From assembly GCF_988243305.1 (NCBI RefSeq), contig NZ_OZ547136.1: a stretch of 64,000 bases of DNA, one strand, 5' to 3'. Shown here in pieces: positions 54,871 through 58,010 of this stretch. Both the position numbers and the translations under genes were made by a program. Positions within the stretch are counted from its first letter, which is position 1, and every line of letters begins with the position of its first letter. The notes beneath the pieces were generated by a model, which searched no databases, was not told the DNA's origin, and worked only from the letters and a program-made list of their open reading frames with translations.

Positions 54871-54907
54871 TTGCATCACCCGCCAATGCGTGGCTTAATG
54901 CACATCA
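54871..54907 (+). promoter_or_regulatory. cspA promoter (-35 TTGCAT, -10 CTTAAT, AT-rich UP element upstream)
   Basis: Hexamers with 17-bp spacing ending about 8 bp before the inferred transcription start at 54908. Confidence 0.65.
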
Positions 54908-55066
54908 ACGGTTTGACGTACAGACCATTAAAGCAGTGTAGTAAGGCAAGTCCCTTCAAGAGTTATCGTTGATACCCCTCGTAGTGCACATTCCTTTAAC
55001 GCTTCAAAATCTGTAAAGCACGCCATATCGCCGAAAGGCACACTTAATTATTAAAGGTAATACACT
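54908..55066 (+). promoter_or_regulatory. cspA 159-nt 5' UTR (RNA thermosensor) including the cold box TGACGTACAGA at 54914..54924
   Basis: Cold-box sequence present near the 5' end of the leader; long untranslated leader before the cspA Shine-Dalgarno. Confidence 0.75.
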
Positions 55067-55279
55067 ATGTCCGGTAAAATGACTGGTATCGTAAAATGGT
55101 TCAACGCTGACAAAGGCTTCGGCTTCATCACTCCTGACGATGGCTCTAAAGACGTGTTCGTACACTTCTCTGCTATCCAGAACGATGGTTACAAATCTCT
55201 GGACGAAGGTCAGAAAGTGTCCTTCACCATCGAAAGCGGCGCTAAAGGCCCGGCAGCTGGTAACGTAACCAGCCTGTAA
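55067..55279 (+). CDS. cspA: Major cold-shock protein CspA, 70 aa
   Basis: ORF track; RNP1 KGFGFI and RNP2 VFVHF motifs; exact recognition of [34 protein letters not shown]... Confidence 0.98.
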
Positions 55280-55306
55280 TCTCTGCTTAAAAGCACAGAA
55301 TCTAAG

Positions 55307-55335
55307 ATCCCTGCCATTTGGCGGGGATTTTTTTA
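55307..55335 (+). terminator. cspA intrinsic terminator (atccctgcc attt ggcggggat followed by TTTTTTT)
   Basis: GC-rich hairpin plus T7 run 28 bp after the cspA stop. Confidence 0.9.
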
Positions 55336-55466
55336 TTTGTTTTTCAGGAAATAAATAATCGATCGCGTAATAAAATCTATTATTATTTTTGTGAAAAATA
55401 AATTTGGGTGCAATGAGAATGCGCAACGCCGTAAGAAAGGCGGGAATAACTTCCCGCCGAAGACTC

Positions 55467-55619
55467 TTACTCTTTCAAATTGCAGGCTAAAAATGCCGCC
55501 AGCTCATAACTCCCCTGTTTAATATGCAATTCACACAGTGAATCTCTTATCATCCAGGTGAAAAATAAAAGCGTGCAACAAATCACTATTAAAGAAAGTA
55601 ATCTATATTTCTGCGGCAT
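55467..55619 (-). CDS. hokA: Type I toxin HokA (Hok/Gef family small membrane toxin), 50 aa
   Basis: Internal ATG of ORF 55467..55679 with AGGAGG Shine-Dalgarno 6 nt upstream; MPQKYRLLSLIVICCTLLFFTWMIRDSLCELHIKQGSYELAAFLACNLKE. Confidence 0.88.
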   Translation of the reverse strand: MPQKYRLLSLIVICCTLLFFTWMIRDSLCELHIKQGSYELAAFLACNLKE

Positions 55620-55940
55620 TCCCAGCCTCCTGTGTTGATTTCCAACGAGTAAGAGGCTAACCTTATGGTGTTCAGGCATAGGGTAGCCTCACTTTGATTT
55701 ATAGTCAGGTGGGGCTTTTCTCTGTCTGCCTTTCGGTGAATACCTGAGACAAACAGTCTCAAGCACCCGCAGCTATTCTAGCTTAATAAGTTCGTTTCTT
55801 CTCCTTGATATAATCCTAAAAAAATCTCATAAAATTAATATATGAGACAATCTTTATTCAGCAGAAGATTATTAAAGGTTGCTCTATTATTTAGCGATAA
55901 AAAAGCCTGCCAGATGGCAGGCTTTTTAATAACGGCGTTA

Positions 55941-58010
55941 TTACTGCAACAGCGAAATATCCGCAACGCGCAGGAACAGTTCGCGCAGTTTCTCCAGCAT
56001 GGTCAAACGGTTAATACGCAATTCTTTGTCATCAACCATGACCATCACTTTATCGAAGAAGGCATCAACCGGTTCACGCAATTCAGCCAGTTCGACCAGC
56101 GCGTCCTGGTAACGACCTTCGGCGAAGTACGGCTCCAGTTTATCGCGCAGCACAACCACCTGCATCGCCAGTTTAATTTCTTCCGGCTCTTTCAGAGTAG
56201 AAGCATTCACGCGATCGCTCAGCACTTCGTCAGACTTCGCCAGAATGTTAGATACACGCTTGTTCGCCGCCGCCAGTGCTGCAGCTGCTTCCAGGGTACG
56301 GAAGTGCGATACCGCTTTCATTCGGGCATCGAAATCAGCCGGACGCGTCGGACGACGTGCCAGTACCGCCTGGATGGTGTCAACGGTGTAACCTTCGTCC
56401 TGATACCAGGCGCGGAAGCGACCGAGCATAAAGTCGATAACATCATCAACCACGTTGGCATTAGTCAGCTTATCGCCATACAGACGCACTGCTTCTTCGG
56501 TCAGCGTTTGCAGATCAAGGTTGAGGTTCTTCTCAACGATAATGCGCAGCACGCCAAGTGCGGCACGACGCAGCGCAAACGGGTCTTTATCGCCTTTCGG
56601 ATGCTGACCGATACCGAAAATACCCGCCAGGGTGTCCATCTTGTCAGCAATCGCCAGCGCACAAGCCACTGGGTTAGACGGCAGGTCATCACCGGCAAAA
56701 CGCGGCTGATACTGCTCGTTCAGCGCCACTGCCACATCTTCCGCTTCGCCATCGTGACGCGCGTAGTGCATCCCCATAACGCCCTGGGTGTCGGTGAACT
56801 CGAAGACCATGTTGGTCATCAGGTCACACTTAGACAGCAGGCCCGCACGGGTTGCGTGGTTAACGTCAGCGCCAATCTGTTCAGCAATCCAGCCAGCCAG
56901 CGCCTGGATGCGGTCAGTTTTGTCGCGCAGTGTACCCAGCTGTTGCTGAAACAACACGGTTTGCAGGCGCGGCAGGTTATCTTCCAGACGTTTTTTACGG
57001 TCGGTGTTGAAGAAGAACTCGGCATCCGCCAGACGTGGACGAACGACTTTCTCGTTACCAGAGATAATTTGCTGCGGATCTTTCGATTCGATGTTGGCAA
57101 CGAAGATAAAGTTCGGCAGCAGTTTGCCGTCGTTCGCATACACCGGGAAGTATTTCTGGTCACCTTTCATGGTGTAAACCAGCGCTTCAGACGGCACCGC
57201 GAGGAATTTCTCTTCGAATTTTGCGGTCAGCACAACCGGCCATTCCACCAGCGAAGCCACTTCTTCCAACAGGCTTTCGCTTAAGTCAGCGTTACCGCCA
57301 ATCTTACGTGCTGCTTCTTCGGCATCGGCTTTAATCTTCGCCTTACGTTCTTCGTAATCGGCGATGACTTTCCCGCGCTCACGCAGAATTTCCGGATACT
57401 GATCGGCGTTATCGATGGTGAATTCCGGCTCGCCCATAAAGCGGTGGCCGCGAATCACGCGATCGGACTGAATGCCCAGAATGGTAGCCGGAATAACTTT
57501 GTCGCCCAGCAGCAGGGTCACGGTGTGCACCGGACGCACGAAGTGCACGTCGCTTGCACCCCAGCGCATCAGTTTCGGGATCGGCAGTTTCGCCAGCGAA
57601 GTTGCAACCATATTCGGCAGCAGTGCTTCGGTGCTTTCGCCCTTCACGTGGGCGCGATACAGCAGCCATTCGCCTTTATCGGTAGTCAGACGCTCAGCCT
57701 GGTCAACGGTAATACCGCAACCACGCGCCCAACCTTCTGCCGCTTTGCTCGGTTTGCCTTCAGCGTCGAACGCCTGGGCAATCGCCGGGCCGCGTTTTTC
57801 GATTTCACGATCCGGTTGCGCTTCCGCCAGGTTAGCTACTTTCAGCGCCAGACGACGCGGAGCAGCAAACCATTGAACGGTGCCGTGTGCGAGGCCAGCG
57901 TTATCCAGCTCCACAGTAAAGTTCGCAGCAAAGGACTCAGCCAGGCTGCGCAGTGCTTTTGGTGGCAGCTCTTCAGTGCCGATTTCCACCAGAAAAGTTT
58001 TCTCAGACAT
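55941..58010 (-). CDS. glyS: Glycine--tRNA ligase beta subunit, 689 aa
   Basis: ORF track; recognised as GlyS. Confidence 0.97.

Follow-up and report, generated by a model that had tools for sequence, protein, structure and literature searches.

In the E. coli K-12 strain MG1655 the toxin gene hokA (3720448-3720600) is separated from glyS by an IS150 element (3720633-3722075; 1443 bp, insJ/insK), and both mokA, which is in the hokA frame and is cut by the element, and sokA, a remnant of 35 nt, are annotated as pseudogenes. The stretch of 64,000 nucleotides analysed here (contig NZ_OZ547136.1, referred to below as the window) carries hokA next to glyS with nothing of this kind between them. 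This raises the questions of whether such a locus is a complete type I toxin-antitoxin system, how its arrangement relates to that of K-12, and whether an uninterrupted hokA is also an active one.

Layout of the locus and family assignment

The window is E. coli sequence, and over positions 55280-55945 it matches strain Res13-Lact-PER13-34 (E. coli O169:H41) at 100% identity. The locus is framed by the following features.

55067-55279, plus strand: cspA
55467..55619, minus strand: hokA toxin gene, an open reading frame of 50 codons (50 aa), assigned by Pfam and NCBIfam matches and by comparison of alleles
55626..55631, minus strand: hokA Shine-Dalgarno sequence AGGAGG
55899-55927: glyS terminator
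55941-58010, minus strand: glyS

A preliminary description, made from the sequence alone, had placed hokA and its AGGAGG at these same coordinates, and they hold. It had also taken the approximately 320 bp before glyS to be leader. The distance is correct, the hokA ATG and the stop codon of glyS being 321 bp apart, but only 149 nt of it (55620-55768) is leader; the remainder is promoter region together with the terminator of glyS.

Against Pfam PF01848 the HokA sequence scores 79.3 bits (cut-off 22), and against NF007290, the HokA equivalog of NCBIfam, 126.5 bits (cut-off 89), the latter match covering residues 1-50 of 50. The leader (55617-55768, minus strand) matches the full length of Rfam model RF01794 (1-157) with 124 bits, against a gathering score of 59 (E = 1.7e-29). 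These scores lie well above the thresholds and far from what chance would give. The translation, MPQKYRLLSLIVICCTLLFFTWMIRDSLCELHIKQGSYELAAFLACNLKE, is a peptide of about 50 residues whose N-terminal helix is hydrophobic and which has the two conserved cysteines, C29 and C46; the presence of both conserved cysteines in HokA has been described (bioRxiv 10.1101/2025.08.07.668861). Residue 15 is a cysteine in the window allele and a phenylalanine in other alleles. A group of sub-threshold Rfam matches at 55834-56044 (STnc370, amino-acid leaders, istR and others) coincides throughout with the hairpin of the glyS terminator, and these were rejected as terminator look-alikes.

Comparison with the interrupted locus of K-12

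No IS150 DNA and no homologue of InsJ or InsK was found anywhere in the 64-kb window, so that the absence of a transposase ORF between hokA and glyS, as first described, extends to the whole of it. The accompanying statement that IS150 sits between these two genes in K-12 is confirmed by alignment to MG1655, which shows the element together with the mokA and sokA pseudogenes. The gene and its site are common to the window and to the hokA::IS150 locus of MG1655 (hokA b4455, mokA b4647, sokA b4614, insJK), the flanks are 97-99% identical and both hokA genes have the Shine-Dalgarno sequence AGGAGG. The K-12 flanks correspond to the window up to 55651 and again from 55691, with 38-39 bp absent and no target duplication.

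55652..55690: segment present in the window and missing in K-12, where IS150 is in its place (alignment)

The K-12 state is therefore not a simple insertion, as this segment of 38-39 bp is gone at the IS150 site. In the window it holds the -10 box and start of sokA, the Shine-Dalgarno sequence and ATG of mokA, and dcb, the downstream arm of the target hairpin, all of which K-12 has lost through the replacement of the segment by IS150. The promoter and tac element of K-12 hokA are, unlike those of the window, 1.4 kb away from the gene. The two proteins differ at residues 15, 36 and 47 (F15, E36 and K47 in K-12 versus C15, G36 and N47 in the window). Inactivation of the K-12 hok copies by IS elements, point mutation or rearrangement has been reported (PMC2654758). 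Point mutations in the fold-back or translational-activation elements, which the preliminary description had named as a way in which the window locus might also be inactivated, were looked for and none was found: tac, fbi, the anti-Shine-Dalgarno box, both Shine-Dalgarno sequences, the start codons and the open reading frame are all intact.

Elements of the hokA leader and the mokA reading frame

The locus was compared with hok/sok of plasmid R1, the R1-like reference used for alignment being the hok/sok locus of an IncFII plasmid. A candidate for every design element of R1 hok/sok can be mapped in the window. Those on the mRNA strand are as follows.

55775..55780, minus strand: putative hokA -10 box TAGAAT, 6 nt upstream of the predicted +1, with the layout of the R1-like plasmid
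55405..55768, minus strand: predicted full-length hokA mRNA of ~364 nt, its 5' end placed by homology to R1 and by Rfam, its 3' end approximate
55757..55768, minus strand: tac (translational activator) element, GGGUGCUUGAGA, predicted to pair with 55406-55418 in the full-length MFE fold
55711..55716, minus strand: ucb or anti-Shine-Dalgarno box AGCCCC, predicted to pair with the mok Shine-Dalgarno sequence (closed) or with tac (open)
55687..55690, minus strand: mokA Shine-Dalgarno sequence GAGG, matching the GAGG of R1 mok (PMC9841398) and paired with the anti-Shine-Dalgarno box in the consensus full-length fold
55653..55690, minus strand: predicted Sok target hairpin (mok Shine-Dalgarno GAGGC ... 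dcb GCCUC), which holds the mokA start codon, from the Rfam consensus structure
55467..55679, minus strand: mokA reading frame of 70 codons, in frame with hokA, with its ATG at 55677-55679, from the MG1655 annotation and the orthologues
55439..55458, minus strand: 3'-UTR hairpin GGCGGGAAGUUAUUCCCGCC, a terminator-like site with compensatory changes in 2 pairs
55406..55418, minus strand: fbi (fold-back inhibition) element, UCUCAUUGCACCC, forming the tac-fbi helix in the MFE and consensus folds

The promoter of R1-like hok has the layout TATGAT, 6 nt, GGCGC, which the putative hokA promoter follows. No convincing -35 box was found for the hokA promoter, and TAGAAT was missed by a consensus promoter scan. 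Similarly, no convincing terminator was found that would define the 3' end of the hokA mRNA.

The mokA start codon lies inside the Sok target hairpin and has its own Shine-Dalgarno sequence, and the mokA frame overlaps hokA. The in-frame ATG at 55679, which extends the open reading frame to 70 codons, had already been noticed and was tentatively connected with a mok-like frame; the in-frame pseudogene annotation of MG1655 and the intact orthologues identify it as mokA. Of 16 orthologues from several genera, 14, which are all of the intact ones, retain the mok-hok frame of 70 codons; clear decay is seen in Kluyvera genomosp. 3 (premature stop) and Escherichia sp. E1V33 (frameshift). It is this conservation in 14 of 14 intact orthologues that marks the ATG as the mokA start rather than a chance codon. 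Twenty stop-free codons upstream of hokA could arise at random, and the Mok peptide itself is thought to be unimportant in R1 (PMC9841398), so that an in-frame ATG without any role might be considered. Such an accident is, however, extremely improbable for a codon that begins the same frame at the homologous position in every intact orthologue, lies 6 nt downstream of a GAGG resembling the R1 mok Shine-Dalgarno sequence, is situated within a conserved leader hairpin homologous to that of the R1-like mok start, and opens the very frame that the K-12 annotation names mokA.

Predicted folds of the hokA mRNA

In the MFE fold of the full-length RNA (55768-55405) the tac element at the 5' end pairs with fbi at the 3' end. 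The consensus full-length fold pairs AGCCCC with GAGGC (columns 54-58 with 79-83), and the Shine-Dalgarno sequence and start codon of hokA are enclosed in a helix formed with the 3' portion of the coding sequence. Deletion of the 3' end in silico makes the 5' end (GGG.UGCU, tac) pair with AGCCCC instead. These predicted alternative folds match the closed and open forms between which the R1 hok mRNA switches (PMC9841398).

The fold is supported, as a model, by covariation among the 16 orthologues. These mRNAs of the hokA type come from several genera; in their consensus fold the paired cells amount to 97.4%, and 12 pairs show changes on both sides, compared with 6.3 +/- 1.4 in shuffled alignments (0 of 500 reach 12) and 1-4 in slid controls. 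The tac-fbi helix comprises 11 pairs with 99.4% of cells paired, and shows only one-sided changes from G-C to G-U. This is explained by the way in which the orthologue set was assembled, since 15 of the 16 were retrieved by an exact 22-mer within the 5' 26 nt, and the sixteenth has a single change there, which makes this region near-invariant. In the 3'-UTR hairpin the compensatory changes are at columns 318:327 and 319:326 of the same 16 sequences. By analogy with the 3' stem of R1 hok mRNA (PMC9841398), this hairpin is probably the protective 3' stem of a processed hokA mRNA. The stem of the target hairpin has one C.A mismatch in the window allele, which is common to E. coli C; the O157 allele has none.

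The sokA antisense RNA

The putative antisense elements are on the opposite strand, and the predicted RNA would cover the start region of mokA.

55635..55663, plus strand: putative sokA promoter TTGATT-17 nt-TAACCT, by homology to the R1-like sok promoter
55670..55725, plus strand: predicted SokA antisense RNA of ~56 nt, from its fold, homology to the R1-like plasmid and transfer of the K-12 sokA annotation
55685-55716, plus strand: predicted SokA terminator stem, followed by a U-rich tail to 55725

The putative promoter aligns with the R1-like sequence TTGCGC-17-TATCCT and shares with it the stretch GTAAGAGGCTAxCCT. It was below threshold in the consensus promoter scan, TAACCT agreeing with TATAAT at 3 of 6 positions. 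Since the scan picked up neither the sokA nor the hokA promoter, both are assigned by homology to the R1-like plasmid. The predicted SokA fold has a terminal stem-loop like that of R1 Sok and a U-rich tail; in the full MFE fold a part of the 5' tail is taken up in weak outer pairs with the 3' tail. The sokA remnant of K-12 (3722077-3722111) maps to 55691-55725 of the window and coincides with the predicted 3' end of SokA. An earlier placement of sokA on the plus strand at around 55650..55740 brackets the present estimate, which is derived from homology and annotation transfer.

Proposed mechanism

The preferred reading, to which we assign a probability of about 0.88, is that the window carries an uninterrupted hokA/mokA/sokA type I toxin-antitoxin locus of the ancestral type, situated between the glyS terminator and cspA and most likely working in the manner of R1 hok/sok. 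The weak hokA promoter (-10 box TAGAAT, 55775-55780) would give rise to an mRNA of about 364 nt on the minus strand, running from 55768 to approximately 55405. In the full-length mRNA tac (55757-55768) would lie on fbi (55406-55418), the anti-Shine-Dalgarno box AGCCCC (55711-55716) would cover the mokA GAGG (55687-55690), and the Shine-Dalgarno sequence and start codon of hokA would be locked in the long-range helix that they form with the 3' portion of the coding sequence. Because of these pairings the closed mRNA would be neither translated nor bound by Sok. Slow trimming from the 3' end would then remove fbi, so that tac would move onto the anti-Shine-Dalgarno box, the mokA Shine-Dalgarno sequence would be freed and the target hairpin (55653-55690) would form. 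Translation of mokA, which is in frame with hokA, would open the hokA start site and lead to the production of HokA, a membrane peptide of 50 residues. SokA (plus strand, ~55670-55725, from the promoter at 55635-55663) would pair at the mokA start region and block this step, and the duplex would be degraded. The transcript ends, the 3' processing, the translational coupling, a cleavage by RNase III and the toxicity of the product are all proposed here by analogy.

Comparison with E. coli C, R1 and hokC

The hokA gene of E. coli C was located at NZ_CP020543.1 346202-346354 and is likewise uninterrupted. It occupies the same site, in the order cspA-hokA-glyS, shows 98.2% identity to the window across 448 nt and shares its target hairpin allele, the gap between hokA and glyS being 322 bp as against 321 bp. 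The differences between the two are small. The hokA Shine-Dalgarno sequence is AGGAGG in the window and AGGGGG in E. coli C, O157 and others, which results in an arginine at residue 18 of MokA in the window and a glycine in E. coli C. HokA has C15 in the window and F15 in E. coli C. Just upstream of the predicted +1 the window has GC where E. coli C has CA, and a 1-nt indel and a substitution are found upstream of fbi.

R1 hok has a homologous leader with the same order of elements, namely tac, metastable hairpin, anti-Shine-Dalgarno box, hairpin with the mok Shine-Dalgarno sequence and ATG, hok Shine-Dalgarno sequence, hok, 3' hairpin and fbi. The sok promoter and the Sok stem-loop are also homologous, and the same alternative folds are predicted for the window. 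The leader is shorter in the window, at 149 nt versus ~168 nt in R1. The mokA and hokA start codons of the window are 60 nt apart and in frame, whereas the R1 numbering (mok start including T117 and G118, hok start including G176; PMC9841398) gives an out-of-frame offset of ~58 nt; in the R1-like IncFII variant mok is in frame with hok, as in the window. The R1 locus is carried on a plasmid, whereas hokA of the window belongs to the chromosome and is passed on vertically at a single site, and no plasmid relatives of the hokA locus were detectable at the DNA level. A further difference is that E. coli C hokA, unlike R1 hok/sok, reportedly does not stabilize plasmids.

E. coli also contains hokC/mokC/sokC (gef), a chromosomal hok locus paralogous to hokA, for which the K-12 annotation likewise gives a mok in frame. 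It is found at another site, between dnaJ and nhaA, and its leader is ~72% identical to that of hokA in the 50 nt beside the junction.

Frequency and taxonomic distribution of the uninterrupted locus

The types of junction were counted among 5426 complete E. coli genomes. The intact junction, detected by a 100-nt probe (55622-55721) that spans both insertion points and was covered to at least 80%, is present in 2800 genomes, and the K-12-type hokA/IS150 junction in 1662. Most of the remainder has a second configuration, a simple insertion of IS150 in the opposite orientation that is accompanied by a duplication of CACTT (55690-55694). Subtraction and a spread sample put this class at roughly 900 genomes and at most 964, the raw count of 1167 being inflated by hokC::IS150 junctions at 80-90% identity.

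Among species representatives an exact 22-mer from the leader occurs in E. albertii, Escherichia sp. E1V33, Pseudocitrobacter, Kluyvera, Salmonella enterica subsp. arizonae, Klebsiella oxytoca, K. michiganensis and K. grimontii. In the enterobacteria all of these loci adjoin glyS, and also cspA where the locus is long enough. Two of the 15 matches were set aside as non-native. One is a 454-bp contig deposited as Methylobacillus sp. MM3, whose sequence is that of a leader/IS150 junction of the K-12 type and which probably stems from contamination by E. coli; the other is a contig of a Cytophagales MAG, which matches only the hairpin-shaped 22-mer itself. The order glyS-hokA(-cspA) is common to Escherichia, Pseudocitrobacter, Kluyvera and the Klebsiella oxytoca group, and it follows from this shared arrangement that the uninterrupted glyS-hokA-cspA locus is ancestral and that of K-12 derived.

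The wild-type hokA locus of Pedersen and Gerdes (1999; Mol Microbiol 32:1090) is, as that work is summarized in bioRxiv 10.1101/2025.08.07.668861, the one of E. coli C, and the hokA of AIEC NRG857c is also intact and free of IS elements (PMC7232551). The uninterrupted locus is thus the ordinary and commonest state, and has been known since 1999. The significance that the preliminary description had implied for an IS-free hokA falls away accordingly, as the state is that of the majority, ancestral and published. It is K-12 that is the atypical reference, since about half of the complete E. coli genomes, as well as related genera, have an uninterrupted hokA; for the same reason the annotation of mokA and sokA as pseudogenes in K-12 should not be transferred to such strains.

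Alternative explanations

An uninterrupted locus need not have been so throughout its history, and one that had carried IS150 and lost it by excision would be a revertant rather than ancestral. Excision does occur at this site, as is seen in the O145 allele (RM12522-C8, RM9872), in which TGTACTGC replaces AGGC exactly at the insertion site. The window, however, is free of any scar; its site has the sequence CACTTTGATT, just like E. coli C and the orthologues of other genera, and the same sequence is found at the syntenic site in other Escherichia species. A reversion is on these grounds very improbable, and the uninterrupted state is taken to be original.

Activity is a different matter. The hokA locus of E. 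coli C is reported to give neither post-segregational killing nor activation by rifampicin (Pedersen and Gerdes, 1999, as summarized in bioRxiv 10.1101/2025.08.07.668861), and because it is nearly identical to that of the window, 'uninterrupted' may not equal 'active'. The window locus could on this basis be a decayed and silent relic, dead in its promoter, processing or activation, which behaves like the K-12 pseudogene. Besides the 98.2% identity to E. coli C, the weakness of both the hokA and sokA promoters by consensus, the C.A mismatch in the target hairpin and the decay of some orthologues (Kluyvera genomosp. 3, Escherichia sp. E1V33) would agree with such a relic. Decay of this kind is nevertheless doubtful. 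The open reading frame, both Shine-Dalgarno sequences, tac, fbi and the anti-Shine-Dalgarno box are intact in the window, the fold is kept by compensatory changes across genera, and the 70-codon mok-hok frame is retained in 14 of 16 orthologues. Overexpression of the HokA coding sequence is reported to be toxic, and the sequence has served as a toxic control (bioRxiv 10.1101/2025.08.07.668861). In addition, a failure to stabilize plasmids is no proof that the RNA switch is dead. A locus that is silent but well preserved remains a serious alternative to the R1-like toxin-antitoxin system preferred here. With a complete hokA/mokA/sokA, a consensus AGGAGG and HokA C15, the strain could serve for testing whether chromosomal hok loci are active.

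A possible shared IS150 target site in hok leaders

The second E. coli configuration defines a target site that is unoccupied in the window and lies where the mok Shine-Dalgarno sequence meets the loop of the Sok terminator hairpin.

55690..55694: CACTT, the IS150 target site, free of any element in the window and duplicated in the second E. coli configuration

In several independent cases the ends of IS150 or IS150-like elements lie within ~2 nt of one leader position. IS150 ends there in the second configuration of E. coli hokA, and the right IS150 junction of K-12 is at the same nucleotide. In K. grimontii an IS150-like end is found at this position, the contig ending in the element, and in S. 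enterica arizonae an IS remnant occupies it and hokA is gone. The homologous position of the hokC leader is occupied by IS150 in strain AR_0151, with a 3-bp duplication. The O145 allele appears uninterrupted, but AGGC is replaced at the site by TGTACTGC, which corresponds to the left end of IS150 (its first 8 nt); this is an excision scar, and it destroys the mok Shine-Dalgarno stem. The allele is carried by at least two O145 strains and by fewer than ~380 genomes, partial 100% matches contaminating the identity bands from which this figure is taken.

Tentatively, the window may show, in its unoccupied state, a nearly site-specific target of IS150-family elements, although we consider this unlikely as it stands. 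If such elements do read the sequence or structure of hok leaders, as opposed to selection filtering random insertions, the leaders would constitute a natural conserved target for the IS3 family and would offer a recurrent and safe route to the silencing of hok. IS3-family elements can target sequences resembling their terminal inverted repeats. A resemblance of the insertion site to the IS150 terminal inverted repeat was considered and rejected, as by eye only ~5 of 12 positions match beyond the shared ACCC. Repeated independent insertions of IS150 beside hokC, hokE and mokB have been observed in evolution experiments (PMC5419217), so that hits of IS150 near hok genes are in part already known. 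The exact site shared across hok paralogues and genera may be new, and would be of modest interest for the target choice of IS elements and for the disarming of type I toxins by bacteria.

Structure of the hokA::IS150 locus in K-12

Comparison of MG1655 (locus L001, 834–2277) with window positions 55652–55690 demonstrates that hokA::IS150 is not a simple insertion. The MG1655 locus has lost 38–39 bp (window 55652–55690), and a target duplication is absent. E. coli has a second common configuration, in which the element is inverted with respect to that of K-12; the right junctions of the two coincide to the nucleotide.

An apparently uninterrupted allele is found in O145 RM12522-C8 (L010, aligned to window 55686–55690) and also in O145 RM9872, in which TGTACTGC replaces AGGC. 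These 8 nt are the start of the left end of IS150 and constitute an IS150 excision scar. The mok Shine–Dalgarno (SD) sequence is lost with it, as is the outer stem of the target hairpin. The lack of an insertion sequence therefore does not always signify an intact locus.

IS150 at the leaders of hok loci

The ends of IS150 or IS150-like elements lie within about 2 nt of a single hok-leader position (window 55690–55694). This is the point at which the mok SD meets the terminator loop of the antisense RNA Sok. The elements found at hok leaders are as follows, in the coordinates of each comparison locus.

L003, 3416–4858, IS150 or IS150-like element
L031, 2547–3989, IS150 or IS150-like element
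L030, 1–98, IS150 or IS150-like element
L020, 4172–4700, IS150 or IS150-like element

In E. coli hokA, IS150 adjoins the shared position in two configurations, and in hokC of E. coli strain AR_0151 it is accompanied by a 3-bp duplication, GGT. Klebsiella grimontii and Salmonella enterica arizonae each carry an IS150 or IS150-like element close to the same point. This position may represent a target hot spot. Insertions of IS150 adjoining hok loci have been described in evolution experiments (PMC5419217).

Neither of two further leader matches is a native enterobacterial locus. A contig of 454 bp in the Methylobacillus sp. MM3 assembly (L029) is a K-12-type junction between the hokA leader and IS150, and therefore probably came from E. 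coli DNA contaminating the assembly. A Cytophagales metagenome-assembled genome (L019) shares only a 22-nt hairpin-forming string, which lies inside a terminator-like hairpin.

The hokA allele of the window and the locus in other genomes

The window encodes cysteine at HokA codon 15 (TGC, 55576), whereas the residue is phenylalanine in E. coli C, O157, K-12 and all other genera. The hokA SD (55628) reads AGGAGG, in comparison to AGGGGG in most uninterrupted alleles. O169:H41 has the same residue and SD as the window, and C15 also occurs in strain 43905. In this strain (L015, 254–625) an insert of approximately 400 bp, with a gene that carries a yidD-like annotation, separates cspA from hokA; it occurs in some genomes with the HokA protein of the window and is absent from the window itself.

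In Pseudocitrobacter faecalis DSM 27453 (L017, 949–2218) glyS and cspA flank three tandem hokA-type loci. The leader is complete in every copy, and all three also have a 70-codon mok-hok ORF and a fold-back inhibition element; the whole hokA module is triplicated locally. The leader of E. albertii NBRC 107761 (L016, 14699–14845) is intact as far as CAACACAG, just before the hokA SD. It then gives way to unrelated sequence (TGTATGGGT) at the edge of the retrieved locus, in which no hokA ORF was found, and the break may represent another insertion.

Features flanking hokA

The surrounding features are as follows, in window coordinates.

54907–55334, plus strand, cspA thermoregulator RNA (Rfam RF01766), full-length match, 501 bits
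55419–55490, plus strand, 23-codon ORF (MRNAVRKAGITSRRRLLLFQIAG), overlapping the hokA stop codon and 3′ UTR in antisense
55842–57284, plus strand, 480-codon ORF, antisense to glyS
55899–55927, glyS terminator hairpin AAAAAAGCCTGCCAGATGGCAGGCTTTTT

The RF01766 match spans the cspA 5′ UTR, coding region and terminator. The cspA product is identical to K-12 CspA, and RefSeq genomes name the gene cspE. The glyS terminator hairpin gives a match to STnc370, an enterobacterial sRNA family (55867–55933, plus strand; 46.3 bits, below the gathering score of 54), as well as sub-threshold matches to several leader families, all of which probably reflect terminator resemblance only. The 480-codon ORF was read as a shadow of the glyS coding strand, and neither a gene nor a transposase. 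The 23-codon ORF has no NCBIfam match; it corresponds to K-12 ysaE (b4793), and many RefSeq genomes label its product as hypothetical.
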